Counted from the stretch's first letter, positions 8,233-55,318 are shown. The stretch: DNA of 64,000 nt from Bacteroidales bacterium (GCA_021738535.1 JAIPBU010000014.1:12411-76410), one strand, 5' to 3'. Notes: generated by a model from the sequence alone, not told the origin. Made by a program: numbers and translations.

Positions 8233-8270
8233 AAAACTCATTCTCAACTCCCTCTCAACTCAATCAAACT
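8233..8270 (+). repeat. 10/11-mer array, copy 3, just 3' of the four-helix-bundle gene
   Basis: aaactcattctcaactccctctcaactcaatcaaact. Confidence 0.85.
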
Positions 8271-8290
8271 CCTGCCTGCCGGCAGGCAGG
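8271..8290. repeat. Perfect 20-bp palindrome cctgcctgccggcaggcagg
   Basis: Self-complementary; interrupts the array (caaact|palindrome|cattctaaact). Confidence 0.9.
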
Positions 8291-8294
8291 CATT

Positions 8295-8660
8295 CTAAAC
8301 TTTCCTATCCAACGCCTTCCTCAAATTACTCAGCATAAACGAAACAATATTCGCCTCTTTCCTGAACTCTTCAATATATTTATCTTTCAGGTATCCGAGG
8401 TCATTACTTAAAATCAACTGATTAATATTTTCCATTAGGCTTGAGTAAGCAATATTATAGAAATGTTTCTGGTCTTTCTTTGAAGCCCGGGAAGAGCCTT
8501 CTGCGATATTCGAGCAGACAGACATAGAGGATCTTCTCAGTTGGTTGGTAATTCCAAACTTTTCATCATCAGGAAATTCTTTGGTCACAGTATATACTCT
8601 GCGAGTATAAATTCTTGATTTCTTCCATACATCAAGCTTTTCAAAATTGAATGTGTACAT
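8295..8660 (-). CDS. Four helix bundle protein (TIGR02436/PF05635), copy 1
   Basis: FEKLDVWKKS...FPDDEKFGITNQLRRSSMSVCSNIAEGSSR...FYNIAYSSLME...DLGYL. Confidence 0.93.
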   Translation of the reverse strand: MYTFNFEKLDVWKKSRIYTRRVYTVTKEFPDDEKFGITNQLRRSSMSVCSNIAEGSSRASKKDQKHFYNIAYSSLMENINQLILSNDLGYLKDKYIEEFRKEANIVSFMLSNLRKALDRKV

Positions 8661-8737
8661 TTTGGTTAATTTTAATTAATACAGCGAGTTAACAACCTAA
8701 ATATATAAAGATTAATTCAAATATTAATCTCTCCTCA

Positions 8738-8789
8738 AAACTCATTCTCAACTCACTCTCAACTCATTCAAACTAATTCTCAACTTTCT
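8738..8789 (+). repeat. 10/11-mer array, copy 4, 5' of the four-helix-bundle gene
   Basis: aaactcattctcaactcactctcaactcattcaaactaattctcaactttct. Confidence 0.85.
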
Positions 8790-8847
8790 TAATGCAACCA
8801 ATCCCCCCATTTACCAGTCAAATAACTTGAAAAAAGCCTATAAAACA

Positions 8848-8884
8848 TTTGTATAGCACTTAAAATCGAGTAAATTTGTTACTC
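8848..8884 (+). promoter_or_regulatory. Bacteroidota sigma-A promoter overlapped by a palindromic operator
   Basis: TTTG (8848-51), 19 nt, TAAATTTG (8871-78); gagtaa-atttg-ttactc palindrome at 8868-8884. Confidence 0.7.
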
Positions 8885-8903
8885 AAAGACTTGATCGTAA
8901 CCT

Positions 8904-9446
8904 ATGATAAACTCCCTGATAACCTCACAAACCAGGATCAAGCTGCTGCTCAAGTTCTTCCTGAACAGCAATACCCGTGCACACCTGCGCGGACTCGAAT
9001 CCGAATTCGGGGAATCATCCAATGGTATACGGGTTGAGTTAAACAGGATGGAGGAAGCCGACCTTTTGAATTCTACCAGGGAAGGAAACAAGAAACTTTA
9101 CTACGCCAACAAAAAGCATCCCTTATTCAGCGATATACATAATATTATTATCAAGGAGACCGGCATCGACCGGGTTGTAAATAAGGTTATTGACCGCCTG
9201 GGCGACTTAAATTCTGTTTACCTGTGCGGAGATCTGGCAAAGGGATGCGACAGCAACATTATAGATCTCATATTAATTGGATCAGGCATCGATCGTGAAT
9301 ATCTAACACGGAAAGTAGAACAGGCCGAAAAGCTTGTTGGCCGCAAGGTCCGCTACATATTGTTGAACAACGACGAGGCAGACGACTATCTCCTGGCCTA
9401 CCCGCCCGGCGATTTGTTGCCATTGTGGAATAATAAAAAAAGCTGA
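8904..9446 (+). CDS. ArsR-like wHTH regulator with a nucleotidyltransferase-like C-terminal domain
   Basis: LITSQTRIKLLLKFFLN...HLRGLESEFGESSNGIRVELNR; G.LAKG.D...IDLILIG. Confidence 0.8.
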   Translation: MINSLITSQTRIKLLLKFFLNSNTRAHLRGLESEFGESSNGIRVELNRMEEADLLNSTREGNKKLYYANKKHPLFSDIHNIIIKETGIDRVVNKVIDRLGDLNSVYLCGDLAKGCDSNIIDLILIGSGIDREYLTRKVEQAEKLVGRKVRYILLNNDEADDYLLAYPPGDLLPLWNNKKS

Positions 9447-9447
9447 T

Positions 9448-10095
9448 ATGACAAAAAGAAATCACATATCAAGCTCAAATAGTCGGCAATCTGCAGTCCG
9501 CAGTCGGCAAGATAAGGAGATGAACTTAAACAACTCACCTCTCACCTCTCGTCCTGAGCGAGCCCAGGAGGCGAGTCGAAGGGCTCACCTCTCACCGCTT
9601 GATGCCCACTGGTATGCAATATATACCCGCGCCAGAACAGAAAAAAGATTGCACGACAGACTCCAATCCGAAGGCTACGAAGCATACCTGCCTCTTGTAA
9701 AGACCCTCCGCCAGTGGTCCGATCGCAAAAAGTGGGTAGAGGTGCCGTTGTTAAATTCGTATGTTTTCGTACTTACCCATCCGGAATATCTAAGAGATAT
9801 AATAACGCTGGAAGGAGCAGCCAGGTACATCAGTTTCGAAGGGAAGCCTGCTGCAATTCCTGAAAAACAGATAGACAATCTTCGATTACTGGTAAACAGC
9901 GAAGCAAATATTGAAGTAACCGGTGAACGATTATTACCCGGCGACCCCGTTGAAGTAACACACGGCTCCCTCCGCGGTCTCTGTGGTGAATTAATAAAGC
10001 TAGGAAACAAAAACAAGGTAGTGGTCCGTATCGACAGACTTGATCTTAACCTTGTTGTCAAAATACAAAAGGCGTTCCTGAAAAAGCTCAGGTAA
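9448..10095 (+). CDS. upxY: UpxY-family (NusG paralog) transcription antiterminator with a repeat-derived N-terminal extension
   Basis: WYAIYTRARTEK, YLPL...RQWSDRKKWVEVPL..SYVFV, KOW motif GDPVEVTHGSLRGL. Confidence 0.9.
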   Translation: MTKRNHISSSNSRQSAVRSRQDKEMNLNNSPLTSRPERAQEASRRAHLSPLDAHWYAIYTRARTEKRLHDRLQSEGYEAYLPLVKTLRQWSDRKKWVEVPLLNSYVFVLTHPEYLRDIITLEGAARYISFEGKPAAIPEKQIDNLRLLVNSEANIEVTGERLLPGDPVEVTHGSLRGLCGELIKLGNKNKVVVRIDRLDLNLVVKIQKAFLKKLR

Positions 10096-10187
10096 CGCCG
10101 CAAACATACATTAATAGGCCTACTCAGCTATTCCAATATATGTGACTGAGGGGGCTGTGCTATGGGCAATAGTAAGTAAGATTATTT

Positions 10188-11321: not shown

Positions 11322-12134
11322 ATGGCAAAACTAAGTAGCTCATTTAGGATATATATCTATCAAATACTTTTTTTAACCATAGTTTTTTCAGGATGTACCA
11401 GCACAGAAAAGTTAACCTATCTCAACAACCTCCCCGAAACCTCCGAGACCCAATACTTCCCTGTAGATGTTCCGGATTACAAGATACAATACAGGGATAT
11501 TCTATACATTACAGCTAAAGCAATGACCCCTGAAGGTGCGATAGTTGGTTTATTACAAGATATATCAGGAGCCAGAAATCAGTATTTCAGAGATGAGGCA
11601 AGCCAGTACATAATGGGTTATAATGTTGATGAAGGCGGTTATATTTATCTCCCGGTAGTTGAAAAAGTGCAAGTTGCGGATAAAAGCATAGAAGAAGTTA
11701 GAATAATTCTGCAGGAGGAAGTTGATAAGGTTTTTAACAATGCCTATGTAGAAGTTAAGCTTTTAAGTTTCAAATTCACAGTTCTCGGTGAAGCAAATGC
11801 TCCGGGCACTTATGTTAATTACAATAACTATTTAACTGTTCTTGAAGCAGTAGGACGAGCAGGAGGGGTTAGCGATTATGGCCGGCGAGACAGAGTCCTT
11901 CTCATTCGCCCCACAGATGACGGCAGCAAAACCTATCGCATCAATCTTCAGGACAAAGATTTGCTGACGTCAGAAGCCTACTTCCTGCAACCAAACGATG
12001 TAGTTATCATAGAACCTGTCAAGCACAAGATATTCAACATGAACCTACCAACATTCAGTTTTGTACTGACATCAGTTACAAGTGCGATAACAACAACATT
12101 ACTACTAATTAATTTCTTTGGTAATTCAAACTAA
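11322..12134 (+). CDS. wza: Polysaccharide export lipoprotein
   Basis: Lipobox FSGC, G.I.LPVV.KV.VA, TVLGEANAPG, LEAVGRAGG, LQPNDVVII. Confidence 0.9.
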   Translation: MAKLSSSFRIYIYQILFLTIVFSGCTSTEKLTYLNNLPETSETQYFPVDVPDYKIQYRDILYITAKAMTPEGAIVGLLQDISGARNQYFRDEASQYIMGYNVDEGGYIYLPVVEKVQVADKSIEEVRIILQEEVDKVFNNAYVEVKLLSFKFTVLGEANAPGTYVNYNNYLTVLEAVGRAGGVSDYGRRDRVLLIRPTDDGSKTYRINLQDKDLLTSEAYFLQPNDVVIIEPVKHKIFNMNLPTFSFVLTSVTSAITTTLLLINFFGNSN

Positions 12135-12175
12135 GAGTACAGTGTTTAGAGTACAGTGTTTAGCGTATAGCGTTT
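12134..12175 (+). repeat. G-rich heptamer arm (agagtac/agtgttt/agcgtat)
   Basis: Six in-phase heptamers starting in the wza stop codon. Confidence 0.9.
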
Positions 12176-12223
12176 TTGGATATGGAATTTTATAATAATG
12201 TTTCTTAAGTCAATTTCAGCTAG

Positions 12224-12601
12224 GTGATTATTACCAGGTTTGAGGATTTAGAAATTTGGAAGTTGGCACGAGAACTTTATAAATTTGTTTTTAATATTAC
12301 TTTAAGAGAACCATTTTGCCGGGATTTTAAACTGCGGGATCAGATAAGAAGTTCTTCCGGTTCAATATCCGACAATATAGCCGAAGGTTTTGAACGCGGA
12401 GGAAACAAAGAATTTATACAATTCCTTTTTACCGCTAAAGGTTCCTGTGGAGAAACACGCAATCAGTCTTACAGAGCATATGACAGTGATTACATCACAC
12501 ATGATATACTTAATGAATTACTGGAGCGCACCGATAAGATATCACGAAAAATAGTAAGTTTGATAAAAAAGCTTAAATCCTCCTCAAACAGAGGAATTTA
12601 A
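12224..12601 (+). CDS. Four helix bundle protein, copy 2
   Basis: RFEDLEIWKLAREL...DQIRSSSGSISDNIAEGFERGGNKEFIQFL..AKGSCGETR. Confidence 0.93.
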   Translation: MIITRFEDLEIWKLARELYKFVFNITLREPFCRDFKLRDQIRSSSGSISDNIAEGFERGGNKEFIQFLFTAKGSCGETRNQSYRAYDSDYITHDILNELLERTDKISRKIVSLIKKLKSSSNRGI

Positions 12602-12630
12602 TTTGATTAATATTAAACCTATATTTATTA

Positions 12631-12676
12631 TACTCATTACGCATATAACGAAACTCTGAACGCTTTACGCTAAACG
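12631..12676 (+). repeat. C-rich heptamer arm, reverse complement of 12134-12175
   Basis: tactcat tacgcat ataacga aactctg aacgctt tacgcta aacg. Confidence 0.8.
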
Positions 12677-12687
12677 TAAATAATCCT

Positions 12688-35025: not shown

Positions 35026-36042
35026 ATGCGAAAGGGATTCACATTAAACATATATAGATTATTATTAGAAACCCTGCAAATGCAGGGTATTTCATTTATG
35101 CAGGTTGGCGAATATTATGCAAACCAGAGAATCCGAAGTAATACGAACAGGTTTGTGATCTTGAGGCAGGATGTTGATAAATTACCTGGTAATTCTCTGG
35201 CATTTGCACAGATTCAGAGGAATATGGGGATCAGAAGTACTTTTTATTTCAGGGTAGTACCCGGGAGTTTTGATGAGGGGGTTATTGAGGAGATTGCAGG
35301 CTTAGGACATGAAATAGGGTATCACTATGAAGACATGAGTTTTGTGCCTCAAAGACAAAAGACGAAAGACAAAAGACTGAAGGAAGAGGAGATAGTAAAG
35401 CAAGGTATTGAGAGTTTTGAGAAAAATTTGGAAAGGTTCAGGGAGACAGTTCCAGTGAGGTCTATTTGTATGCATGGGAGTCCGATGAGTAGGTGGGATA
35501 GTAGATTGCTCTGGAAGTATTATGATTACAGGGAGTTTGGGGTGGATTTTGAGCCATACTTTGACTTAAATATGGAGTCTATGCTATACTTAACCGACAC
35601 TGGCAGGCGGTGGAACGGATCTGGCGTTTCCATTAGGGATAAGGCACAGAGCGCAGAGCACATAGCGCAGGATGTAGGACTGAGAGACAGAGAGATTGAG
35701 AGACGAAGAGAGAAGATACAAGTAGAACAAGGGAATGACAAAGATAACCTTGAACCTGGAACCTTGAACCTGGAACCGTTTGCGGACTGGAAAGTTAAGC
35801 CAGTGTCAGGTAGTCTGATGAATATGACAAAAAGATCTAAAGATTTTCAGGCTCATTACATTTTTAGGTCAACAAATGATATCATTCAAGCTGTAGAGCA
35901 AGGCCAGTTGCCGGATAGGATCATGATGACTTTTCATCCTCAGAGGTGGACGAATAAAACACTTCCATGGGTCAAGGAACTATTATGGCAGAATACGAAG
36001 AATGTTGCAAAATATTTTCTTATTAAATTCAGGAATAAATAG
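35026..36042 (+). CDS. Polysaccharide deacetylase-like protein with repeat-derived insertions
   Basis: FT...Y..LL, LRQDVD, GHEIGYHYE, ICMHGSP, YLTDTGRRW, FHPQRW. Confidence 0.75.
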   Translation: MRKGFTLNIYRLLLETLQMQGISFMQVGEYYANQRIRSNTNRFVILRQDVDKLPGNSLAFAQIQRNMGIRSTFYFRVVPGSFDEGVIEEIAGLGHEIGYHYEDMSFVPQRQKTKDKRLKEEEIVKQGIESFEKNLERFRETVPVRSICMHGSPMSRWDSRLLWKYYDYREFGVDFEPYFDLNMESMLYLTDTGRRWNGSGVSIRDKAQSAEHIAQDVGLRDREIERRREKIQVEQGNDKDNLEPGTLNLEPFADWKVKPVSGSLMNMTKRSKDFQAHYIFRSTNDIIQAVEQGQLPDRIMMTFHPQRWTNKTLPWVKELLWQNTKNVAKYFLIKFRNK

Positions 36043-36161
36043 TATCATTAATTTTTTAGTTTTCATTCTAGTTCACTTTATAGATACACAATAAATGAAT
36101 AAAAACAATTATCTATCCATACATTAGTAACAAGCACAAAATCAACATTTTAATATATTTT

Positions 36162-36189
36162 CTCATCGCTCACCTCTCCCCTCTCACTG
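36162..36189 (+). repeat. C-rich heptamer array (ctcatcg ctcacct ctcccct ctcactg)
   Basis: Same family as 9534-9597, 52581-52656 (reverse complement) and 54514-54572. Confidence 0.75.
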
Positions 36190-36397
36190 CTTTGAATTTT
36201 GTAGCATCGTAAGTTATTGACAGGTAGTTAGCTTACTGTCAAAAAACAATCCATGGTTGCACCTCTAAAAGATGCAACCTTTTTTATTATCTTACAGTCT
36301 TAATTTCACCTTGCTTTGCTATGCTTTCATGAATCTTAGGAAACATGTTAATTATGGCCGAGATAGGCATCAACATTTTCACCAAAACTCAACCGCT

Positions 36398-48300: not shown

Positions 48301-51300
48301 TGTTACACCAACGGGTGACTTTAGTTCTGTTTCATATCGCTGGTTTGAGAGCACTGACGGAAGTACATTCAGCCTGGTGGCAGGGGAGACCACTGAGACA
48401 TTGTCGCCTCCCGCACTGACCCAGGATACATGGTATAAGAGAGAGGTATCAGCAAGCCTGAATGGAGTTGATTGTATAGAAGAGACAAACACTGTTAAGG
48501 TAACAGTTATCAACTTCGATCCGGGTTCAATTGATGCTGATCAGACTATATGCGACGGAAGCGCGGCAACTGTATTTACAAGTGTCACGCCTACAGGCGA
48601 TGGCAGCTTCACCTACCAGTGGCAGTCAAGCACTGACGGTGTTACATTCACTGACATTCCGGGAGCCAATTTCGAAACATATAATGCAGGAATACTGACG
48701 CAGGATACCTACTTCAAGCGTCTGGTTACAGCTAATCTTAACGGTCAAACCTGTACAGAGGAAACCAATGTAATAACTGTTACCGTTGTGAACTTTGACC
48801 CGGGTTCAATAGGATCCGACCAGACAATATGTGAAGGTGAAGTGCCTGCAGCACTGACCAGTGTGACTCCGACAGGAGACGGAGCCTTTGGTTACCAGTG
48901 GAAGGAGAGTACAGACGGGTTCACATTCACGGATATAGGTGGCGCAACCGGTGAGACATATACACCACCTGCCCTTTTGCAGGATCACTGGTATAAGCGC
49001 GTGGTAACAGCCAGTCTTAACGGAACGGATTGTACTGCAGAGACCAATACGGTGAAAGTGACGGTTAATAACCTGAATCCGGGAACAATAGGAACGAATA
49101 AGTCCATCTGTTTCGGTGACGATCCGGTTGGGTTCATAAGCCTTGCCCCTGCATCAGGAGATGGTGCGATAACTTACCAGTGGCAGATAAGTACCGATAA
49201 TGTTACATTCACTGATATAGGAGGAGCAACGGGAGTTACCTATGATGAGGGAGCACTGGTACAAACTACATATTATAAGCGTATAGCAATAAGCACACTT
49301 AACGGTGTTGATTGTACCGCGGAAAGTAATGTTATAACGGTAACCGTCAACCCGCTGCCAGTGGCTGATATGAGCGGTGATGCTGCCATATGCCCGGGAA
49401 CGGCGACAGATATTTTTGTTAACGTTACTACAGGAACAGGTCCATACCTGCTGACCATCAATAATGGTGTTGGCGTGGTAAGTAATTACACCAGCGGCGA
49501 CCCGATACCGGTTGTACCGATGTCGGCCCCGGTAACATACGAACTGCAATCGATTATCGATGCCAACGGATGTGAAGTGACTGCACCCCATACCAATATA
49601 ACAGGAAGCGCTACTATTACCTTCCTTGAGACGGTTAGTATAGATGTGCAGCCTGTCAGCCAGGAGATATGTGAGAATAATAATGTCACTTTCTCTGTGA
49701 CAGCTACCGGTGAGACACCCTACAGTTACCAGTGGTATGAGAACGGCAGCCCGATGGCGGGTGAGACAGGATCAACACTGAGCCTGACAGCTGTTCCTGC
49801 ATCAATGAGCGGCAACCAGTACTTTGTCGACGTAACAGGTGGTTGCGGTAATACGGTACGCTCAGACCTGGCAATACTGACAGTTAATACAGAAACTAAC
49901 ATAACGGTTCAGCCGTCAGACACTACTATTTGTGAATTCTCAGCCACGGCCTACGGCGTGACTGCAACAGGTTCAGGACTTACTTACCAGTGGCAGGGAC
50001 AGGCTCCTTCAGAGTCGTCTTTCACTGACCTGGTTGGCTCAGGAACCTTTATAGGAGTTAACACAAGTAACCTGCAGGTATACGGAGCCGACAGGACTAT
50101 GTCAGGATACCGTTTCAGGGTAGTAGTCGGAGGTACCTGTTCTGCAGATCTCACATCGGGAGAAGCAGTGCTTACAGTTAATACAGCACCTGAGATTGTT
50201 TCGAATCCTTCTGATACAACAGTATGTGAAGGCTTTGGTGGCATGTTCGTTGTAGAAGCTGCCGGCGATTCACTTGAGTACCAGTGGTACGTTAACAACG
50301 GAGGAGGCTTTGTAGCACTCAGCGATGATGCGAACCATACCGGCTCAGATGATGATACCTTGTATGTTACCAATGTAGGTCAATCAATGAACGGCTGGCT
50401 CTACAGGGCCGTTGTCAGTGGAGTTTGCAGTCCTGATGCATACAGCAGCTTTGCAGTGCTGGCAGTTGAGCCACTGCCTGTCGTAACGCAGCAGCCTCTG
50501 GCGCAGGAGATCTGCGAAGGACTGGGAGCTACCTTCCTGGCTTATGCCACCGGAACAGGTGTTAGCTACCAGTGGCAGTATGATGACGGAGGCGGATGGA
50601 TTGATCTTAGTGACGGAGGAATCTATACCGGTACACAGACACAGCAGCTGAGGATAGACGGTGCACCCGTTTCAGCATCAGGTACAATCAGGGTAGAAGT
50701 TGTGACTGATTGCCAGACTATATATTCGGATGAAGTGTTGTTTACGGTTAACGACAACCCGGTAGTAGACTTCAGCGGAATAGACCCGGTACTTGCATGC
50801 GGAGGCGTTGATACCCAGCTGGACGGAAATCCCACCGGCGGTTCAGGAACTTTCACGACACATAGCTGGACTGGACAGGTTGGTCCGCTCGACGACTTTA
50901 CGAGGCAGGATCCTGTTTTCAACACAACAATGCCGGGAACGTACAACCTGACATATACAGTAACCGATAACAACGGTTGTATGGGATCAGATAACCTTAG
51001 TGTTGAGGTTGAGAAGCCGACGGCTGCGTTCACACCATCACCAACCAGCGGATGTACACCACTTGATATAACGATGACCGACGGATCAAGCGGAGCGGTG
51101 AATTACAGCTGGGACTTTGGTGACGGCAGTGCGATTGACAATACTGCAGGAAATGTTACCCACCAGTATACAAATACTACGCAATCAGTATATTATTATG
51201 ATGTTAAGCTCGAGGTTGAGTCTGCCAATGGTTGTCTCGACAGTATGATAAGAGGAATAACCGTTTACCCGGAGATAGATGCTGACTTTGAGTTCAGCGA

Positions 51301-52570
51301 GGACACTATCTGTTCAGGAGAAATGGTATACCTTAACTCACTGCCGGGAGCTTACCAGTATTACTGGGAGTATGGCGACAGCCAGTCAGAGTACGGTGCT
51401 AATGTGACATCACACATGTTTGTTAACACAGGCACTGCACCAGCGACTTATACAGTAAGGCTGACTACAACGTCATTCTACGGATGTACCGACTTTGTAG
51501 AGAAGGATATTGTTGTGTATCCTGTTCCGACGCCATTGTTCACTGCCAGCCCGGCATCACAGACATGGCCCGCTGCAACGGTTGACTTTACCAACAATAC
51601 GAATACCGGAAGCTGGGATTACCTGTGGCGCTTTGGTGACGGTACTACATCCACGCTGGAGAACCCGACACATGAGTATACTGCTCCAGGCGATTACAAG
51701 GTATGGCTGATAGTTAGCAATGCTTTCTGTTCAGACAGCATAGACCGCAATGTGAGCGTACTGCCCACACCGCCCGTAGCTGCCTTTGATAGTGTACCAC
51801 CTGCCTGCGGACCATATACTGTGACAATGACCAATAACTCAGAGTATGGAGAGACTTACCTCTGGGAGTTTGGTGACGGAGGCATATCAACAGCAGAGAA
51901 TCCTACCTATACCTATTACGAATCAGGTATATTCAGGATCACCCTGACGGTTACCGGTCCAGGCGGAACGGATGTTGAGTCGAAACTTGTTGAGGTATGG
52001 GCCACACCAAGGGCATACTTCGAGGTAGCACCCGACTTCGTATACGTTGGAGATGAGCGGGTACGTTGCTTCAACCTCAGCGAGGGAGCATCAAGCTTCA
52101 TCTGGGAGTTTGGTGACGGGGACACATCGCAGATGCGCGATCCGTATCACAAGTACATGGAGGAAGGTGTATTTGACATTACCCTGCATGCCTACAGTGA
52201 TAACGGTTGTTACGACACCTACACCCTGTCGCCGGCCGTGACGGTTGAACCGGCAGGAGAGATCACCTTTGCGAATGTGTTCAGGCCCAATAAGGAAGGT
52301 CCGCTCGGAGACGACGTTGACAACCTGTCGAGCGACCAGATAGACCAGATGTTCTTCCCGCCCGTGAAGGAGCAGGTAAGCGAGTACAAGCTGCAGATCT
52401 TCAGCAGGGCCGGCGTACTGCTCTTCCAGAGCAACAGCATCAACAAAGGCTGGGACGGCTACTACAAAGGGCGCCTGGTAATGCAGGGAGTGTATGTCTG
52501 GTATGTTGAAGGTAAGTATGCGAATGGTAAGCCGTTTAAGAAGACAGGAGACATAACCCTACTCCACTAG
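36398..52570 (+). CDS. Giant (~5390 aa) T9SS type-B-sorted surface protein with Ig-like repeats and PKD domains
   Basis: Signal peptide ...LLIFSIILMSFKGYA|Q; 24 tandem DQTICEG repeats; several WDFGDG PKD domains; C-terminal F.N.F.PN...IF.R.G...GWDG...GVYVW gliding-motility-type CTD. The ORF is open from 36272. Confidence 0.9.
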   Translation: MERPVVTGKRKKSYSSFLFRALLIFSIILMSFKGYAQPSWDAEPTLTEINALNGILTVDFDVNCTVYYIIDRYITFPKDPATIKNFSSLPPDGNSGGFRGGGSFTYTASGSVSHLAEHFVPLDIRSDVHTLHIVAETTPGNFSAVDTINFTTDYCPTISPLTALTSTSKCVNNPATKTYNFVDLSPPENVLKGCEWTIDWGDGSAVYNYTSSDNGDVPPNQSHDFVNHDSCYFEVLLTATNIEGCETIGGLSKIETPILAGRDDDMDGNGEMLLVNLDNGSPDTIKVCEGTEAFITLQDAGTWDCDETFKTYPPGEINANDRDLQFVYGMHHQTQAVENTITGDISITGSYPGTANTTSGHASGIYNIDTDVMSPITNPNTNSDLIRIPPTAQYGEYMHVYLKNWNKCNPYSGDPWDGTAVWDSIVIFIEQGPIADAGSDFSICEDETANMNGSIHSAATSAEWTTTGDGSFTNETSPDNAVYTPGVNDISAGSVDLVLHAYGIGLCPEHTDTMRLTLDPLPAKPTISITVGANDFCDDDATSMTLSSTVSPDGTYRWYKDGIFTGDVTQDIVLNDWTQSGDYTVEVFGTTANSCPRESDPFTVNIGQPATVDAGPATAETCSDTPYSTSGSFGGSATSVTWTTSGDGNFDNTGNPTTTYTPGSDDIAAGTVTLTLTTNNPSGPCPAVSDNVVLTVTTAPTAYAGADAFICETENYQVTDASVANENSFSWALTSGSGSISNTSIINPTYNPAAADAGTTVQMRLIATGNGSCADATDDILIYVDPEPTASVGPDQQICDATTATLSGNTPVNNARGEWVYSSNLVFHESFRASADGDIDGRNWNLNVSALNIIDPNDYCEVRSNHFEAQDIDGEGVWETEEIDISTSGNIRISVSLPNSYNLDNSDYIRCFYILDGGSEVLLNNGEHFNDYSSEYATASGLSGNTLKIVIRFQNDGGSEEHWFDDIFVWKDDGTIIPSIIDPDDPGTTVSGINQGVNEFDWIVYSEYDGCDPATATLTITRDIQPDAATTGGPQEDCETNSFTLTGNAATDGGSGLWTHTAGPAGYTITDNTDPGTTVTGLDYGTHTFTWTISSALGICSDTQASMDITRNEDPAPTIAADAGPHCYNSSVLITGTPNLGVTASSVSTHTWSGSGAAYLNSTSVQNPTFTAPSVSSPTDFDLIYTVTDDNGCIGVSATFTISVYPHVESANIGTDQNICASTSTNVQVAITGGIGPYTVEYDVTDSGGTTTLTENNYTSGDDIATAVLTENTTYTLVSVTDANGCTATNLTGSAVINVGVLPDKATLAPVVTPICEGTNARLQIVITDGVPPFDVTIDNGVGTFSVPGFSYTYDLGAIAAGSHDYNITGIVDDCGNSFGDLGSTATVVVNSNPDLSDVSTTICSDEQSSVNLAIDNAGAFGILSTTYNITNIANNGLSPSNGSPGTGTGLPSSEIADDAWTNKTAANVGVVYTIVPVSDKGCTGIAEDITLTVQPEPDLNVSDVSVCSDAPTGITLTDADGIATSFNITSINQGGLTASAGAPATGTGFAAGEISDDAYTNLTGADVDVTYTVVPVSTNGCEGDPEVITLTVKPEPVITAGQNPAACSGNALDYQILLDNFTNPGDNVTFTWGAPTLNPVDPGFTGGTARVAQSAANITDTFTNTTGAIGTATYTVTPYYNGCEGDPMDIVVQVGPEPVLDPNLDKFACSDTPIALTLQEETGSVTPSRYNIISVTVDPDLTAGGSNAAIPEANANASYLENDHYTNTSGSNQDVVYRVQPILDPDCFGDPVDIIVTIRPEPVIQPVQVKTVCSGVAVNKEILLLPVNTPAGTTFDWPQPTMSDGSTQGTAGVGVAADPAGTFHITDVLSNFTGADITATYYVTPTSANGCVGEEVAVEITVQSQPVTSVITGESTLCVGAENEVYSVDNTPGSSYSWTVPANMTVVFDDNVNFIIVDATAAGSDNVEVVETNIDGCVGLPEVLPVTVSNYATAETVSGPDVVCKGETNVAYSVPDNVGSTYQWYVPAGVTVTSDPAAHEIFVDFNLDSGGDISVVETNSSGCTTVHDPITVTVNSINAGSIGSDQAVCSGVDPAAFISNTDASGDGTVTYQWQESTDNVNFTDIGGATNSTFDEGIIAQTKYYKRIATSSLGGKDCSAESNVVAIYLNEVDPGQVGSDQTICEGDFAAGLTSITNGSGSGAITYQWQDSPDNITFTDIPGETFSALSPGSLTADRYYKRITISTLLGTPCEAESNVVTVTVNNFDPGSISAAQTICEGDTPVAFTSVSPTGDGAFSYQWRQSTDGVTYTDIGGALNETYAPGALTQDTWYKRIVTSSLNGTDCIEETVPVKVTVINFNPGSISTDQTICEGGTPAALNSVAPSGDGAFTYQWQESIDGSAYTDIIGETGATFNPPALAQDTWYKRIVTASLNGTDCDDETNAVKITVNNFDPGSISADQTICEGTAPAALTSVTPTGDGTFTYQWMSSIDGTNFNNITGATAETYGPPALTQDTWYKRAVTSTLNGVNCTEETNVVEITVNNFNPGSISADQTICEGANANPFTSVTPTGDFATVGYQWYESTDGTTFNPIGGATAETYDPGALTVDTWYKREVTATLNGVPCIEETNTVKVTVINFDPGSIDADQTICEGSNANSLTSVSPTGDGSFTYQWYESADGSTFTPLAGVTGETYNPGALTADTWYKREVTATLNGHTCTEETNVVRITVNNFDPGSISADQTICEGDTPVALTSVDASGDGAFGYQWQISTNGSTYSDIGGATAATYAPGALTQDTWYKRIVTSSLNGTDCIEETAPVKITVINFTPGSISSDQTICEGSTPNPLTSVSPSGDGTFTYQWQESADGIAYSDIGGETGVTFSPPALTADTWYKRIVTSSLNGTDCDDETNAVKITVNNMTPGVIGTDETICEGDVPTPLTVTTAATADGTITYQWQSSTDGTNFFNITGATSDTYSSPAITADTWYKRSVTSSLNGVLCTEETNVVQVTVNNFDPGSISEDQTICEGANANPFTSVTPTGDFTSVAYQWYSSTDGSTFNPIGGATTETYDPGALTVDTWYKREVTATLNGVPCIEETNTVKVTVINFDPGSINADQTICEGSNANSLSSVAPTGDGSFTYQWYESADGSTFTPLAGVTGETYNPGALTADTWYKREVTATLNGHTCTEETNVVRVTVNNFDPGSISADQTICEGDTPVALTSVDASGDGAFGYQWQISTNGSTYSDIGGATAATYAPGALTQDTWYKRIVTSSLNGTDCIEETASVKITVINFTPGSISSAQTICEGGTPNPLTSVSPSGDGTFTYQWQESADGIAYSNIGGETGETFSPPSLTVDTWYKRIVTSSLNGIDCDDETNAVKITVNNMTPGVIEADQTICEGSVPADITVNTAATADGTITYQWQSSTDGTNFFNITGATSDTYSPPALTADTWYKRVVNSSLNGVICTEETNAVKVTVNNFDPGSIDADQTICEGANANPFTSVTPTGDFASVAYQWYESTDGSTFNPIGGATNETYDPGALTVDTWYKREVTATLNGVPCIEETNTVKVTVINFDPGSISADQTICEGSNANSLTSVSPTGDGSFSYQWSSSTDGTNFNPVAGAIYETYNPGALTVDTWYKRAVTASLNGTDCTEETNTVKITVINFNEGSIGSDQTICEAATPAALTSTTPTGDGTFTYQWQESTNGVNYTDIVGANGETYAPGALTQDTWYKRIVTASESGTDCIVENTPVKITVINFLPGSIASDQTICEGDTPNPLTAINPNGDGTFTYQWQSSTDGSNFSNITGETGATYTPPALTQDTWYKRIVTASLNGTDCTEETNVVRITVNNFDPGVIGSDETICEGGTPAGLTSTIPASGDGAFTYQWLQSTDGTNFSTVSGATTDAYNPPALTQDRWYKLEVTSTLNAIGCTEETNTVKIMVNNLDPGSIDADQTICEGDTPAEITSVTPTGDFSSVSYRWFESTDGSTFSLVAGETTETLSPPALTQDTWYKREVSASLNGVDCIEETNTVKVTVINFDPGSIDADQTICDGSAATVFTSVTPTGDGSFTYQWQSSTDGVTFTDIPGANFETYNAGILTQDTYFKRLVTANLNGQTCTEETNVITVTVVNFDPGSIGSDQTICEGEVPAALTSVTPTGDGAFGYQWKESTDGFTFTDIGGATGETYTPPALLQDHWYKRVVTASLNGTDCTAETNTVKVTVNNLNPGTIGTNKSICFGDDPVGFISLAPASGDGAITYQWQISTDNVTFTDIGGATGVTYDEGALVQTTYYKRIAISTLNGVDCTAESNVITVTVNPLPVADMSGDAAICPGTATDIFVNVTTGTGPYLLTINNGVGVVSNYTSGDPIPVVPMSAPVTYELQSIIDANGCEVTAPHTNITGSATITFLETVSIDVQPVSQEICENNNVTFSVTATGETPYSYQWYENGSPMAGETGSTLSLTAVPASMSGNQYFVDVTGGCGNTVRSDLAILTVNTETNITVQPSDTTICEFSATAYGVTATGSGLTYQWQGQAPSESSFTDLVGSGTFIGVNTSNLQVYGADRTMSGYRFRVVVGGTCSADLTSGEAVLTVNTAPEIVSNPSDTTVCEGFGGMFVVEAAGDSLEYQWYVNNGGGFVALSDDANHTGSDDDTLYVTNVGQSMNGWLYRAVVSGVCSPDAYSSFAVLAVEPLPVVTQQPLAQEICEGLGATFLAYATGTGVSYQWQYDDGGGWIDLSDGGIYTGTQTQQLRIDGAPVSASGTIRVEVVTDCQTIYSDEVLFTVNDNPVVDFSGIDPVLACGGVDTQLDGNPTGGSGTFTTHSWTGQVGPLDDFTRQDPVFNTTMPGTYNLTYTVTDNNGCMGSDNLSVEVEKPTAAFTPSPTSGCTPLDITMTDGSSGAVNYSWDFGDGSAIDNTAGNVTHQYTNTTQSVYYYDVKLEVESANGCLDSMIRGITVYPEIDADFEFSEDTICSGEMVYLNSLPGAYQYYWEYGDSQSEYGANVTSHMFVNTGTAPATYTVRLTTTSFYGCTDFVEKDIVVYPVPTPLFTASPASQTWPAATVDFTNNTNTGSWDYLWRFGDGTTSTLENPTHEYTAPGDYKVWLIVSNAFCSDSIDRNVSVLPTPPVAAFDSVPPACGPYTVTMTNNSEYGETYLWEFGDGGISTAENPTYTYYESGIFRITLTVTGPGGTDVESKLVEVWATPRAYFEVAPDFVYVGDERVRCFNLSEGASSFIWEFGDGDTSQMRDPYHKYMEEGVFDITLHAYSDNGCYDTYTLSPAVTVEPAGEITFANVFRPNKEGPLGDDVDNLSSDQIDQMFFPPVKEQVSEYKLQIFSRAGVLLFQSNSINKGWDGYYKGRLVMQGVYVWYVEGKYANGKPFKKTGDITLLH
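42623..49350 (+). repeat. 24 tandem ~279-285-bp intragenic repeats with a 1401-bp five-unit higher-order period
   Basis: 44581 onward is near-identical to 45982 onward; unit types recur every five units. Confidence 0.92.
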
Positions 52571-52580
52571 CCTGCAATGA

Positions 52581-52656
52581 AGAGGAGAGAGGTGAGAGCG
52601 GAGAGGAGAGTGAGCGGTGAGCGAAGAGCGATGAGAGGGGAGATGTGAGAAAGTGA
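52581..52656 (+). repeat. G-rich heptamer arm (agaggtg/agcggtg/agcgatg)
   Basis: Begins 11 nt after the giant-gene stop; reverse complement of the ctcacct family. Confidence 0.85.
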
Positions 52657-52662
52657 AAATTC

Positions 52663-52693
52663 AAAAGAGCTGCCAATAGTTTGGTGGCTCTTT
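52663..52693. terminator. Probable bidirectional intrinsic terminator
   Basis: aaaagagctgccaa-tagt-ttggtggctcttt between convergent genes. Confidence 0.75.
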
Positions 52694-52710
52694 ATCTTTT
52701 GACGAAGGTC

Positions 52711-53904
52711 TCAATAGAGGAATCCAAACAGCCAGAGGGGAATTCGGTTGTGTGTTCCGAATTCAATATTATCGGCCACTATATATGCATCCGGTAAAGA
52801 TGAGATCTGTTTATTTTTCTTATTTTTACCACCTATTTCCAATGTATATCTTTCATCTAAAAGGAGGTCACCCTGCTCTACGTATTCAACCTTGTTATTA
52901 TACTTAAGTTGATTGATTAGGAATGTTTCTCTTAAGGTTCCCTTTTGAAGAGTACCTGGTGACAGTGCATACATAATATTTGTATTCTCCATATAAATTT
53001 TATCGGGTTTCTGAAGTCTTGTGATTCCCTCCGCATCCCTGTAAATACTATTGATTAATCTGGCTTCCTGAAGGTAAACCAGATATGACAGAAGAGTTAC
53101 TCTGCTTATGCCCGCTCGTTCACTGAGTTTGCTGATATTGGGAATAAACGGGACGGATTCAGCTATTATCCTGATAAGTTTCCTGATTTTAGGAATGTGA
53201 CTGTTTTCGACTCCCCTTAAATTGGGTAGCTCTATCTCAAGAATCATATTGACAAGCTCTTCGATACGTTGATGATACAAAGCCTTTACCTCATTGAAGA
53301 AAGGATAATATCCATACTGCAGATATTTTTCGAAATGCTGTAAAGGTTTAATTTTTCCAAGAATATCACCTGAAATCTCAATGTGATTATTTAATATATC
53401 ATCTATCGAATAGATACTGAAATTTTTTCCTGTTGTCATACCAAGAAACTCCCTGAATGATAGTCCCTGCATTTCATATACTATGGCGCGTCTGCTTAGG
53501 TCGGCTCTTGAGTTGAGTATCTCGAGAAGTGAAGAACCTGTAAAAACGATATGCAGACCAGGGTAATCATCATAAAGGTTTTTTATTTCCTGAGCCCAAC
53601 CGGGATATTTATGGACCTCATCCAAAAAAAGGTGTTTCCCGCCTCTTTTAACAAAATGGTCGGTTAGAGAAGTGAGACTGTTTTTTGCAAACCACAGGTT
53701 GTCAAGAGATACATACAGTGCTGTTTCATCATTGAGATGGTTTTCCTTTAAATACTGCAGCATGATAGTGGTTTTTCCGACACCTCTTGCCCCTTTTATT
53801 CCGTAGAGCCTGTATTCCCAATGGATAGCATCCATACTACTTCGAATAAAGGTGGTGTCGGTTACAAGCAGCCTATTACGATATTTTTCAAAAAGTAAGT
53901 CCAT
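52711..53904 (-). CDS. AAA_14-family ATPase
   Basis: GARGVGKTT, FLDEVHKY, TGSS, DLSRR, KPDKIY..N, EIGGK. Confidence 0.9.
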   Translation of the reverse strand: MDLLFEKYRNRLLVTDTTFIRSSMDAIHWEYRLYGIKGARGVGKTTIMLQYLKENHLNDETALYVSLDNLWFAKNSLTSLTDHFVKRGGKHLFLDEVHKYPGWAQEIKNLYDDYPGLHIVFTGSSLLEILNSRADLSRRAIVYEMQGLSFREFLGMTTGKNFSIYSIDDILNNHIEISGDILGKIKPLQHFEKYLQYGYYPFFNEVKALYHQRIEELVNMILEIELPNLRGVENSHIPKIRKLIRIIAESVPFIPNISKLSERAGISRVTLLSYLVYLQEARLINSIYRDAEGITRLQKPDKIYMENTNIMYALSPGTLQKGTLRETFLINQLKYNNKVEYVEQGDLLLDERYTLEIGGKNKKNKQISSLPDAYIVADNIEFGTHNRIPLWLFGFLY

Positions 53905-53942
53905 GTTCAGTTAGAAATAGTCATACTACACAAAAATACAAA

Positions 53943-54026
53943 TGTTTAATCAATTAAACAATAAAACCATTAACATGTTTAATTTAAATAACATAATATG
54001 TAGTTATATGTTTAGTTGAATGAACA
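53943..54026. promoter_or_regulatory. Three 18-bp palindromic operator-like sites spaced 33 bp apart
   Basis: tgtttaatcaattaaaca (53943), tgtttaatttaaataaca (53976), tgtttagttgaatgaaca (54009). Confidence 0.6.
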
Positions 54027-54031
54027 TATAG

Positions 54032-54301
54032 CTACAGCGAAAGAGGCGATGAGAGTAAGATCGTTTCAAACTCTTCTCCGAGAGAATCGCTTTGTTTTAG
54101 TACAAACATTTTGATGTATCGTCGCTTTGCCCAGCCTTCTGCTAATGCACCGGTACCACCTCGTGAGGAACGGCGAATCTGATCGGTTAAGGAATACCTC
54201 TCTTCATTAGGAAACATCTTGGAGATCTCAAATATCTCCATTGCTAATTTATACGCTTTCTGATATACAATCAGTTCACGGAAACTTCCAATTTTACTCA
54301 T
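54032..54301 (-). pseudogene. Four helix bundle protein, copy 3, C-terminally truncated
   Basis: SFRELIVYQKAYKLAMEIF...FPNEERYSLTDQIRRSSR...AEGWAKRRY; last helix replaced by repeat-encoded LLSSPLSL. Confidence 0.85.
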
Positions 54302-54462
54302 TTTTATATATTTTAGAAATGCAGCTCAATAAATATACAAATAAAGAGCCACTTCTCAGCAGCTCCTAAAATTTGACTATCACCCTGATGCTCCCCGGAA
54401 ATGGTTTACATGTTGTGTTACGTAAAATGCGTAACGCAATTAACGTAATATTAATAAAGAAA

Positions 54463-54485
54463 AAGCCCGCATTCTTTGCAGGCTT
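54463..54485 (-). terminator. Intrinsic terminator downstream of the small-peptide gene
   Basis: aagcccgca-ttctt-tgcaggctt preceded by an A-run on the + strand (U-tract on minus). Confidence 0.55.
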
Positions 54486-54513
54486 AAATATGCATATCGT
54501 AAAATATCATTTA

Positions 54514-54572
54514 TCTCTTACTCACCTCTCACAACTCTTTTCTCTCCTCTCTCTTCTCACCTCTCACCTCTT
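54514..54572 (+). repeat. C-rich heptamer arm (ctcacct)
   Basis: ctcacctctcac...ctcacctctcacctc; reverse complement of 52581-52656 and 54033-54060. Confidence 0.85.
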
Positions 54573-54576
54573 GTCC

Positions 54577-54750
54577 CTATCCAAAAGGATCGTTCCCAAA
54601 CGGACTCGCAAACGGCTCATCCTTAGAATCCCCCTTACTCCCTCTCGGATTTGGGTTATCCGGGATAGTAGTCATCATCACCAGGCTGATAGAACTGTCA
54701 AGTTCAATCTTTTTTATGGTAGGTTTTATGTACTTTTTTCTACGTTCCAT
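54577..54750 (-). CDS. 57-aa small protein with a YxxP leader-like motif (absent from the ORF track)
   Basis: MERRKKYIKPTIKKIELDSSISLVMMTTIPDNPNPRGSKGDSKDEPFASPFGNDPFG*; co-oriented with the upstream T9SS gene and followed by a terminator. Confidence 0.7.
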   Translation of the reverse strand: MERRKKYIKPTIKKIELDSSISLVMMTTIPDNPNPRGSKGDSKDEPFASPFGNDPFG

Positions 54751-54783
54751 TCTGGGTGCTAAGATAGTTATTATTATTTAATT

Positions 54784-54827
54784 GTCAAGCAGTCAAGTGG
54801 TCAAGCAGTCAAGCGGTCGAGTAGTCA
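54784..54827 (+). repeat. Octamer arm (gtcaagca/gtcaagcg/gtcgagta)
   Basis: Five in-phase octamers plus a partial unit that supplies the TGA stop of four-helix-bundle copy 4. Confidence 0.9.
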
Positions 54828-55193
54828 TTTTGATTTAACGCATTTAAGAAGGTAGCTTCTCAGTAAACCTATTCCGTTCATCAGGCGTTGAGCTTTGTTT
54901 CTTCTTTTTGCTGCAATCTCTGATGTAACATAATTCCGGTCTTCCGCAATATAATACATGCTTTTAACCTCCGCTGCAGATCCCTTTGACACATTCAAGA
55001 AATACAAGAACTCTTTATCACTATCCCTGCCAAAACCTTCCGCTATATTATTCTGAGTTGACAGGCCCGCATCAGTTATCTGGTTCCTAAAAACAAAATC
55101 CTTACAATGCCTGAAATCAGAATATATATCATTTACAAGATCCCTGGCCATTTTCCAGATCTCAAGATCTTCAAAATCTCTGACTCTCGTCAT
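54825..55193 (-). CDS. Four helix bundle protein, copy 4
   Basis: FEDLEIWKMARDL...RNQITDAGLSTQNNIAEGFGRDSDKEFLYFLNVSKGSAAEVKS. Confidence 0.93.
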   Translation of the reverse strand: MTRVRDFEDLEIWKMARDLVNDIYSDFRHCKDFVFRNQITDAGLSTQNNIAEGFGRDSDKEFLYFLNVSKGSAAEVKSMYYIAEDRNYVTSEIAAKRRNKAQRLMNGIGLLRSYLLKCVKSK

Positions 55194-55263
55194 TCACTCC
55201 ACATTTTTTCTAAACAGCAATTTATTATAAACCTTTTAATCCATTTATCCTGTTACCTAAGTC

Positions 55264-55318
55264 TGCCTGACCGCTCAACCGCTCGACCGCTCGACTGCCA
55301 GACCCCCAAACTTCCTAC
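55264..55318 (+). repeat. Octamer arm (cgctcgac), reverse complement of 54784-54827
   Basis: tgcctgac cgctcaac cgctcgac cgctcgac tgccagac ccccaaac; overlaps the stop of the upstream T9SS gene. Confidence 0.88.

Follow-up and report, generated by a model that had tools for sequence, protein, structure and literature searches.

Genes of the PF05635 (TIGR02436) four-helix-bundle family were found to be carried in compact cassettes, in which the gene and its flanking arms of short tandem repeats form a unit that is copied to unrelated sites, is present in some species and absent from others, and is spread across phyla. The two arms are complementary far more often than the flanks of control genes, and their repeat unit is cassette-specific. 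We read these units as intervening-sequence-type selfish cassettes outside rRNA, whose arms would pair in read-through RNA and be cut by RNase III, and give this reading a probability of roughly 55%.

The window, that is, the whole 64,000-nucleotide stretch of DNA analysed, belongs to Bacteroidales bacterium GCA_021738535.1 (hereafter G000). A whole-genome scan of G000 returned four PF05635 matches, all inside the window, and the four TIGR02436-type genes of the original prediction were thereby recovered as three full genes and one truncated gene. PF05635/TIGR02436 was assigned by Pfam and NCBIfam to the genes of cassettes 1, 2, and 4 (Table 1), and the three full genes scored 122, 108.9, and 95 bits against a curated cut-off of 33.8. 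The cassette 3 gene (58.1 bits) was classed as truncated because its profile match ends at HMM position 73 and the gene then runs into repeat sequence; its 3' end enters a purine-rich remnant arm at 54035-54060. Short-unit arrays lie on both sides of all four genes, inverted in copies 2 to 4 and direct in copy 1, in agreement with what had been predicted for each. The inverted arm alignment scored 34 for cassette 4 and 29.5, just below the cut of 30, for cassette 2, a weak case. The two arrays assigned to cassette 3 enclose 1.9 kb, an ATPase gene included, and the AGAGGTG array is probably the distal part of its 3' arm, with the ATPase gene lying between. A GC palindrome (8271-8290) precedes the downstream array of cassette 1, and arrays of the same 10/11-mer type and orientation as those of cassette 1 flank the DksA/TraR-type gene at 7549-7591 and 8041-8087 (TRF and sequence). 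The units are unrelated between the cassettes of the window, as predicted, yet CTCACCT and AACTCATTCTC arrays recur elsewhere in both the window and the genome. The 5' arm of cassette 2 begins 1 nt past the wza stop codon, and 11 nt separate the end of its 3' arm from the wzc start. Domain matches confirmed the operon neighbours that had been proposed, namely wza (Poly_export and SLBB) and wzc (Wzz, GNVR, and AAA_31) for cassette 2 and a gene with a T9SS tail (55315-58119) for cassette 4; the 57-aa peptide beside the T9SS-gene cassette had no family match.

Table 1. Positions of cassette genes, arms, and associated features in the window.
Feature	Position	Strand	Description and evidence
DksA/TraR-type zinc-finger gene (7621-7971) with flanking arrays	7549..8087	-	
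Cassette 1 downstream array	8234..8270	-	direct, matching orientation of upstream array; sequence, blastn to L003 and L007
Cassette 1 gene	8295..8660	-	PF05635/TIGR02436 four-helix-bundle protein, 121 aa
Cassette 1 upstream (5') array	8739..8785	-	AACTCATTCTC-type 10/11-mers, sense strand G-rich; TRF and sequence
Cassette 2 5' arm	12134..12175	+	7/14-mer units AGAGTAC/AGTGTTT/AGCGTAT; TRF, 14-mer x3
Cassette 2 gene	12224..12601	+	PF05635, 125 aa
Cassette 2 3' arm	~12631..12676	+	degenerate 7-mer complement, weak; by eye, no TRF call
AGAGGTG array	52581..52650	-	inverted complement of 54521-54571; TRF
AAA_14/DUF4143 ATPase gene inside degenerate cassette 3	52711..53904	-	profile match
Cassette 3 gene	54032..54301	-	truncated PF05635, HMM positions 1-73 of 106
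Cassette 3 5' arm	54521..54571	-	plus-strand CTCACCT, hence sense strand G-rich; TRF, sequence
Cassette 4 3' arm	54784..54827	-	plus-strand 8-mers GTCAAGCR, overlapping stop codon; TRF, sequence
Cassette 4 gene	54825..55193	-	PF05635, 122 aa
Cassette 4 5' arm	55263..55304	-	plus-strand 8-mers CGCTCGAC/CGCTCAAC; TRF, sequence

Comparison of flanks with those of control genes, the check proposed with the original prediction, was performed in two sets of genomes. Arms were called at an inverted-flank alignment score of at least 30, and the control threshold was the 95th percentile of the controls, so that about 5% of these lie above it. Among relatives, 42 of the 55 PF05635 genes exceeded the threshold compared with 7 of the 136 control genes, two of the seven being PDDEXK_3 cassettes. 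In the many-phyla set the counts were 52 of 74 and 8 of 195, two of the eight high-scoring controls being further PF05635 genes, and a high score was obtained for 10 of the 17 PF05635 genes from outside Bacteroidota. When loci from many phyla were pooled, complementary arms (score of at least 30) were present in 106 of the 137 cassettes and fell below the cut-off in 31; the pooled medians were 35.5 nt for arm length, 82% for arm identity, 4.4 unit copies per arm, and 514 bp for outer length (gene plus arms). The period was 7 in 97 and 8 in 78 of the 209 array-bearing flanks. Within the pool of all 137, the best partner of the 5' arm was its own 3' arm in 64 cases, and the latter ranked in the top three in 93. 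The median arm score was 38.5 within a cassette and 17.5 between cassettes; a MITE or TIR transposon was rejected on this difference, copies in a genome having no common terminal repeat. Up to 17 family matches occur per genome among the relatives searched, and one PF05635 subfamily pattern alone corresponds to at least 591 confirmed loci.

The encoded proteins are under purifying selection, with dN/dS of 0.04-0.23 in the six usable pairs of nine tried. The cassette 1 protein was matched by phmmer to PDB 2gsc chain A (XCC0516) with an E-value of 2.1e-20 over residues 6-120, and passages of PMC4990558 and PMC10053308 describe 2gsc, a solved PF05635 member, as a homopentamer. It is highly improbable that the protein serves as an Avd-like reverse transcriptase accessory, with the repeats arising by templated, telomerase-like or DGR-like synthesis. 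Such a role would fit the fold held in common with Avd, the weak bAvd/Avd matches, the description of PF05635 as Avd-like in a passage of PMC10053308, and the mirror orientation of short G-rich units at both ends. However, the absence of a reverse transcriptase from the window, noted in the original prediction, extends to the whole of G000 (94.7% complete), in which no RVT_1 match was obtained by a search that worked on control genomes; no template/variable repeat pair was seen, and each cassette would need a separate template. Identity with DGR Avd was rejected on the same genome-wide RVT_1 result and on the Avd models, which scored 18.2 bits against a cut-off of 80 and 19.8 against 40.

Where the neighbouring genes are co-directional, the cassette is co-oriented with them in 87 cases and anti-oriented in 7, which generalises the co-orientation first proposed for the window. 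The median distance is 7 nt from the upstream stop codon to the start of the 5' arm, and 17.5 nt from the end of the 3' arm to the next ATG. On the sense strand the 5' arm has more G than C in 97 and less in 7 of the 106 armed cassettes; solo arrays between co-directional genes had no polarity (69 vs 87). The Bacteroidota -7 motif, the sole promoter motif tested, was not enriched (12 of 116 on the sense strand, 14 on the antisense).

Arrays were also counted genome-wide, an array being defined as a tandem repeat of period 5-12 with at least 2.8 copies and the expectation being taken from a block shuffle. G000 contains 529 arrays, most of them solo, compared with 68 in the block shuffle, and 350 of the 529 lie mostly within non-coding DNA, which makes up 9.5% of the genome. 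An array lies within 150 nt of one end of 452 of the 2714 crude genes and at both ends of only 36; GH130, amidase, aminotransferase, CinA, and DinB-type genes are among those flanked, and in the loci examined, stretches far from PF05635 genes still carry about 0.26 arrays/kb. Genes of the unrelated PDDEXK_3 family (PF13366) have arms of a similar kind. The arms are thus not specific to the PF05635 protein, and the earlier suggestion that a mechanism linked to it generates the repeats is weakened by the PDDEXK_3 arms, by the arrays beside ordinary metabolic genes, and by the missing RVT_1. The abundance of arrays, their concentration in non-coding DNA, their occurrence beside ordinary genes and far from the family, and the fact that arms occupy the entire spacer up to the neighbouring genes would all fit a functionless by-product, in which arrays grow in any non-coding gap in these lineages and gene conversion makes the two gaps around a small insert alike. 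We regard this as distinctly unlikely: same-locus controls rarely have complementary flanks (7/136 and 8/195), the arms move with the gene to unrelated sites, the 97:7 polarity follows gene direction while solo arrays have none, and an empty site described below is array-free.

Several observations define the cassette as a discrete movable unit, and the mobile-cassette part of the original prediction is supported. Two sites of one genome (L003 and L007) share 563 bp of blastn homology from arm to arm; homologies of 516 bp (L057 and L059) and 550 bp (L008 and L016) are set in unrelated flanks, and between copies at unrelated sites the homology ends at the outer arm ends. An empty wza-wzc junction, which had been proposed as a check, was found in a relative (G013), where the spacer is 52 nt and contains no array, compared with the roughly 550-bp cassette that occupies this junction in the window; in a metagenome relative, 592 different letters replace 12119-12683. 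Two sister species carry a PDDEXK_3 cassette in opposite orientations while its arms are unmoved, so DNA-level recombination does use the arms as substrates.

This inversion and the joint copying of gene and arms speak for a tentative alternative, possible but unlikely, in which the arms serve a mobile DNA unit as its functional ends (hairpins, cruciforms, or portable homology arms), the pentameric four-helix-bundle protein, bound to its own repeat units, promotes recombination or repeat homogenisation, and RNA pairing is incidental. The purifying selection on the protein, the homopentamer described for 2gsc in passages of PMC4990558 and PMC10053308, the median of 4.4 unit copies per arm, and solo arrays of the same or similar units, which could be landing sites, are in line with it, as is a lack of G-U bias in the arm mismatches. 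Units also change in step with the protein (AGTCGGC in L023, L031, and L046, AGTAGGC in L050, and AGTTGGC in L036), although shared descent predicts this too. Against it, PDDEXK_3 cargo has like arms without the PF05635 protein, no recombinase was found, no arrays flank the Y1 transposase genes of G000, and a DNA-level element alone leaves the 87:7 co-orientation and the sense-strand G/C polarity unexplained.

For the intervening-sequence reading, RNA folds were predicted for cassettes 2 and 4. The sense RNA of cassette 4 is predicted to form a panhandle of about 40 bp between the arms (z = -4.57), and that of cassette 2 to pair its ends (z = -2.09), the arm pairing being present in both the MFE and centroid structures. 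In the pooled arms, no G-U excess was detected among mismatches (167 sense G-U, 173 antisense-only G-U, 411 transversions), so nothing marks selection on the RNA stem over DNA-level similarity. The mRNA-level part of the original prediction is supported as to the predicted panhandle and the Coxiella-like architecture, and lacks an RNA-specific G-U signature. Copy 1 of the window, with direct arrays and an intact gene, counts against the stem reading, as do the 31 cassettes below the arm cut-off, the many similar arrays beside ordinary genes of G000, and the inverted PDDEXK_3 cassette.

In order, a cassette comprises a 5' arm built of tandem 7-8-nt units, whose sense strand is G-rich; about 50 nt of A/T-rich spacer; the PF05635 ORF; a second spacer, of about 30 nt; and a 3' arm, the reverse complement of the first. 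It is co-oriented with the two host genes between which it lies, takes up their spacer from a few bases past the upstream stop codon to roughly 18 nt short of the next start, and would be transcribed by read-through. The arms would then pair into a 25-60-bp stem, which, by analogy with ORF-bearing 23S rRNA intervening sequences, is probably cut by RNase III, whose gene (rnc) is encoded in G000. Cleavage would free the cassette RNA and leave both host messages intact, and we propose that insertion into operons is tolerated for this reason. The G-rich 5' arm may keep a Rho loading site from being exposed until the 3' arm is made. Likeness of the arms and their cassette specificity could be maintained at the DNA level by slippage within arrays and by gene conversion or recombination between arms.

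Few small proteins of unknown function are commoner in Bacteroidota and Cyanobacteria than those of PF05635, and the PF05635 genes now have a defined context: a bounded movable cassette, putatively co-transcribed, with self-complementary, cassette-specific arms. The 23S rRNA intervening-sequence concept is thereby extended to operons (capsule loci here, cas operons on cyanobacterial plasmids), the frequent breaks of draft assemblies beside PF05635 genes are explained, and the role of the protein and the purpose of the repeats become questions approachable by experiment. The cassettes also offer a possible origin or use for intergenic heptamer arrays that have long been known and unexplained.

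The cassettes resemble the ORF-bearing 23S rRNA elements of the Coxiella, Leptospira, and Xanthomonas type in size (about 0.4-0.5 kb), in the PF05635 ORF within the loop, in complementary ends forming a long stem (by predicted fold in cassettes 2 and 4, not in copy 1), and in a sporadic distribution that suggests horizontal spread. They differ in lying between protein genes rather than in rRNA, in reaching up to 17 family matches per genome among the relatives searched, and in having stems of tandem 7-8-mers that are cassette-specific and polar; no Rfam match was obtained in the window, nor in 20 loci from outside Bacteroidota. According to passages of PMC4990558, the Coxiella element has a 28-bp terminal stem cut by RNase III in vitro, an ORF of the PF05635 family, and upstream tandem heptamers whose number varies between strains, and in its authors' judgement this ORF is probably untranslated and decaying. 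The reported decay differs from the purifying selection on the cassette ORFs described here and counts against the stem reading.

Resemblance to other repeat systems is partial. As in REP/RAYT systems (REPINs), in which a lone small gene lies between inverted short repeats and related repeats are scattered intergenically, a single small gene is flanked by inverted repeats with relatives elsewhere in the same genome; unlike them, the arms are tandem arrays rather than single palindromes, the unit varies per cassette, and a four-helix bundle or PDDEXK_3 protein is carried in place of a Y1 transposase. Identity with REP/RAYT was rejected on this cargo (PF05635 or PF13366) and on the Y1_Tnp genes of G000, which are without such arrays. 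Integron attC is a single 3' site with conserved core motifs and requires the IntI integrase; the cassettes share with integron cassettes promoter-less, small, co-oriented ORFs, tight packing, and foldable imperfect inverted repeats, and differ in having two tandem-unit arms with no sequence common between cassettes.

A broader and quite improbable speculation is that PF05635 and PDDEXK_3 cassettes represent, as its autonomous members, an extensive and unrecognised class of prokaryotic selfish elements, intervening sequences that occupy operons and rRNA alike. Their pentameric cargo would recognise its own 7-8-nt repeat, homogenise the arms, and seed the hundreds of solo arrays in intergenic DNA, much as RAYTs are thought to spread REPs, and the G/C polarity would be an adaptation that keeps the insert transcriptionally silent for its host. 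The solo arrays would include the STRR heptamers of heterocystous cyanobacteria, which to our knowledge comprise a few genome-wide unit families with no linked gene; the cassette arrays are likewise intergenic tandem 7-mers in many copies, but are linked to a gene. Among PF05635 genes on plasmids of Anabaena, Nostoc, and Picosynechococcus, such arrays were present as inverted arms in three of the six loci examined.

The entire assembly of the window's own genome, G000 (3.43 Mb in 61 contigs, 94.7% complete), was scanned in six frames and returned four PF05635 matches, all of them within the window. The short-unit arrays that the original prediction listed around these four copies were recovered with TRF and by direct reading of the sequence, and the neighbours it named (wza, wzc, and a T9SS-tailed gene) were identified by Pfam. 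The arms of copy 4 are clean, inverted 8-mers. In copy 2, which lies between wza and wzc, the 5' arm is clear and the 3' arm is degenerate, with no TRF call for the latter; the inverted-flank score of this copy (alignment of the 5' flank with the reverse complement of the 3' flank) was 29.5. The AGAGGTG/CTCACCT arrays of copy 3 enclose 1.9 kb that includes an AAA_14/DUF4143 ATPase gene, which is located inside this degenerate cassette, between what are probably two parts of its 3' arm. Copy 1 is accompanied by four arrays of one 10/11-mer in a single orientation, direct as had been predicted, and these AACTCATTCTC arrays also bracket a DksA/TraR-type gene. Coordinates are collected in the table.

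Features of the window and of other loci (positions refer to the window unless a locus or contig is named)
Feature	Position	Strand	Basis or remark
PF05635/TIGR02436 gene, copy 1	8295-8660	-	Pfam, NCBIfam
PF05635/TIGR02436 gene, copy 2	12224-12601	+	Pfam, NCBIfam
PF05635 match, copy 3	54032-54301	-	HMM positions 1-73 of 106 only; continues into repeat sequence
PF05635/TIGR02436 gene, copy 4	54825-55193	-	Pfam, NCBIfam
DksA/TraR-type zinc-finger gene	7621-7971	-	between AACTCATTCTC arrays (7549-8087) like those of cassette 1
PDDEXK_3 (PF13366) cassettes	L007:1742-2122, L012:1339-1716, L157-L186		inverted short-unit arms
AAA_14/DUF4143 ATPase gene	52711-53904		inside cassette 3
NusG/UpxY-like gene	9448-10095		head of polysaccharide locus
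AGTCGGC and CTCACCT arrays	9481-9600		
Several unlike arrays in series	35351-35777		upstream of adhesin-like gene
Adhesin-like gene	36272-52570		5432 aa
Inverted TCTCACC/AGAGGTG arrays	36161-36187, 52581-52650		around adhesin-like gene
Inverted 8-mer arrays GACTAAGC and GTCTCTTAGTCACTGC	58704-58850		upstream of PorG-like gene
HTH and Peptidase_M78 gene	59871-60962		
HigB-like toxin gene	60976-61299		
ORF called GcpE/IspG	61658-63073	-	
Arrays including AGGGGTTG x9	61653-61739, 62160-62254		within GcpE/IspG ORF
Five unlike arrays in series	L153:144-369 (G000:C23:22343-22568)		

What distinguishes PF05635 genes is complementarity between the left and right flanks of the same gene. Sixty loci around PF05635 matches were collected from 40 relatives belonging to the same genus, family, and order, and other genes of the same loci served as controls in the flank-score tests. 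Scores above the 95th percentile of the controls were obtained for 42/55 PF05635 genes versus 7/136 controls (Mann-Whitney p 1e-17), and two of these seven controls are PDDEXK_3 cassettes. A wider sample of 80 loci was generated by a pattern scan using one genome per species, and comprised Bacteroidota, Planctomycetota, Nitrospirota, SAR324, Gammaproteobacteria, KSB1, CPR groups, Clostridia, and one archaeal MAG. Here the threshold was exceeded by 52/74 PF05635 genes versus 8/195 controls, two of the latter being further PF05635 genes; the non-Bacteroidota loci alone gave 10/17. The predicted excess of complementary arms over control genes was found in both samples, and the pairing of four-helix-bundle genes with short-unit array flanks is real and generalises across phyla. 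On cyanobacterial plasmids, inverted short-unit arms were present at three of six PF05635 loci, and two of the six were within cas operons. These two, cas6/4HB/cas4-cas1 in Anabaena sp. 90 (L189) and cmr2/4HB/cmr3 in Picosynechococcus (L190), both have G-rich/C-rich arms of heptamer type. In draft genomes, many PF05635 genes were close to a contig end, at a distance of a few hundred bases or less (e.g. L014, L015, L017, L018, and L036). Such positions are consistent with assembly breaks inside the repeat arms, so that draft copy numbers are likely underestimates.

Cassette anatomy was determined using a pooled set of 137 PF05635 cassettes with enough flank, 106 of which had arms scoring at least 30. 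Arm length had a median of 35.5 nt and identity between arms a median of 82%. TRF called an array in 209 of 274 flanks (period 7 in 97, period 8 in 78), and both arms had the same period in 71/85 cassettes. When the 5' arm was ranked against all 137 cassettes, its own 3' arm was the best partner in 64 and was within the top three in 93, as anticipated for units that are shared within a cassette and differ between cassettes. The outer length was 514 bp (median), with the 5' arm starting a median of 7 nt past the stop codon of a same-strand ORF upstream, and the 3' arm ending a median of 17.5 nt ahead of the next ATG. Between co-directional neighbours, 87 cassettes were co-oriented and 7 anti-oriented. 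In the sense orientation, G outnumbered C in the 5' arm of 97 cassettes and C outnumbered G in 7. Solo arrays located between two co-directional G000 genes were without this polarity (69 vs 87). The Bacteroidota -7 promoter motif is TAnnTTTG, and this one motif was not enriched upstream of the cassettes. No motif was common to all 5' spacers of the 137 cassettes; a conserved spacer motif was rejected, given that TCGCTG was limited to 8 places and T[CT]GCTG to 11/137 cassettes, and these are subfamily-specific.

The original prediction of an IVS-like or mobile cassette is supported with respect to the cassette and its mobility, based on arm-bounded homology and an array-free junction in a relative. 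Homology between copies at unrelated places ends at the outer arm ends. It extends over 563 bp between L003 and L007, which are on two contigs of one genome, and is arm-bounded between L057 and L059 (516 bp) and between L008 and L016 (550 bp). An empty wza-wzc junction, which was to be sought in relatives, was found in G013, a complete genome syntenic with the window, in which a spacer of 52 nt without any array occupies the junction that holds cassette 2 in the window. In G013, copy 4 has an orthologue whose arms have drifted, and a PDDEXK_3 cassette is present instead of the ATPase gene and truncated copy 3, at a site that appears to be an insertion hot spot for small genes. Contigs of related populations had cassette 2 replaced by 592 other letters, one 3' arm replaced, and indels of 7-10 nt in arrays; the joints 8014>8866 and 8071>8235 were excluded from the empty sites on account of their short sides (30 and 27 letters). 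Cassettes with related proteins also had related units (AGTCGGC, AGTAGGC, and AGTTGGC), and in each the opposite arm held the corresponding complement; both arms hence change in concert. The PF05635 proteins are under purifying selection, with dN/dS of 0.04-0.23 in the 6 pairs that were usable out of 9 (one pair was misaligned owing to unequal lengths and two were saturated). A tblastn search of phage records gave no match.

Arms are not specific to the four-helix-bundle gene. In the same relatives, inverted short-unit arms were found around 15 of 26 small PDDEXK_3 (PF13366) genes with enough flank, making PDDEXK_3 a second cargo family, and these arms were without G/C polarity (7 vs 7). One PDDEXK_3 cassette is flipped in one of the sister species G006 and G007 relative to the other, with no change in the orientation of its arms or flanks, which is the product expected from recombination between inverted arms. 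The array-bracketed DksA/TraR-type gene may represent a third cargo type; its homologues are on short contigs of genomes G014 and G015, with 78-84% nucleotide identity.

Arrays with periods of 5-12 numbered 529 in G000, compared to 68 in a block shuffle, and 7-mers and 8-mers were the commonest units. According to a crude gene model, 350 of the 529 were mostly in the non-coding 9.5% of the genome, and an array was close to one end of 452/2714 genes and to both ends of 36. Because ordinary genes (GH130, sodium:solute symporter, amidase, aminotransferase, CinA, and DinB-type polymerase) are also array-flanked, and most of the 343 intergenic arrays are solo (an inverted partner nearby in 27 and a direct partner in 31, null 3 each), arrays as such are a genome-wide feature and not a mark of the PF05635 family. 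The suggestion that repeats are made by a mechanism linked to the protein is weakened by these genes and by the PDDEXK_3 arms. Array density near PF05635 genes was 6-10 fold higher per base than far from them, with a small excess per non-coding base; density was therefore unused as evidence, and only flank complementarity was relied on. The 343 intergenic arrays include 141 distinct canonical units, and in some intergenic regions five unlike arrays stand in series, as at locus L153 (AAGACTA, AAGGCT, ATTGTCA, CACTTCGT, and CTTTTAT).

The level at which the arms act was approached through RNA folding and arm mismatches. In the folds predicted for the sense RNAs of cassettes 4 and 2, MFE and centroid alike, the arms pair to close a panhandle (z -4.57 and -2.09), and an rnc gene is present in G000. 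In PMC4990558, the Coxiella 23S IVS is described as having a 28-bp terminal stem cleaved by RNase III in vitro, an enclosed ORF of the PF05635 family, and tandem heptamers whose copy number varies between strains; it has the same build as the PF05635 cassettes. Comparison of sense and antisense duplex energies over 230-nt flanks (39 vs 22, p 0.049) involved duplexes that were too long and noisy, and was replaced by counts of arm mismatch types. Mismatches that would form G-U in sense versus those that would do so only in antisense numbered 100 vs 76 in 50 cassettes and 167 vs 173 in 106 cassettes. These counts contain no RNA-strand signal, and transversions were frequent (411). Both the missing sense G-U excess and the transversions count against the view that the arms matter in RNA only, and it is probably at the DNA level that the arms are kept similar. 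Action of RNase III on cassette RNA is inferred from the family's known rRNA elements, from the co-orientation, and from the finding that the single promoter motif examined was not enriched.

Several known element types were considered. Rfam gave no match in the window, and its matches in 20 loci from outside Bacteroidota were limited to one tRNA and three small RNAs; with no rRNA present in either, a strict rRNA IVS was ruled out. A DGR was ruled out because no RVT_1 reverse transcriptase was found in the 94.7% complete G000 assembly and Avd models scored far under their cut-offs, and a MITE with shared terminal repeats because arms differ between cassettes. REP/RAYT elements, with Y1 transposases as array makers, were rejected since the Y1 genes of G000 are not array-flanked. 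In the open-access papers searched, no description of tandem-repeat arms around the PF05635 family was found, the Coxiella IVS heptamers aside, and the FopS sRNAs of Bacteroides, considered as a possible link, were not co-mentioned with the family.

Further arrays were observed in the window. The adhesin-like gene lies between inverted TCTCACC/AGAGGTG arrays 16 kb apart, and several unlike arrays are in series upstream of it. The inverted 8-mer arrays upstream of the PorG-like gene are 22 nt apart and enclose no gene, making an empty repeat hairpin, and similar empty pairs are present on contigs C14, C3, C31, and C57 of G000. The AGTCGGC and CTCACCT arrays are in the leader or a mis-called 5' end of the NusG/UpxY-like gene, and AGTCGGC is also the arm unit of the relatives' PF05635 cassettes L023 and L031. 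In an array-rich stretch, the HigB-like toxin gene adjoins the HTH and Peptidase_M78 gene as a toxin-antitoxin-type pair. The ORF called GcpE/IspG, which contains the AGGGGTTG arrays, is ~110 aa longer than the span of the Pfam model.
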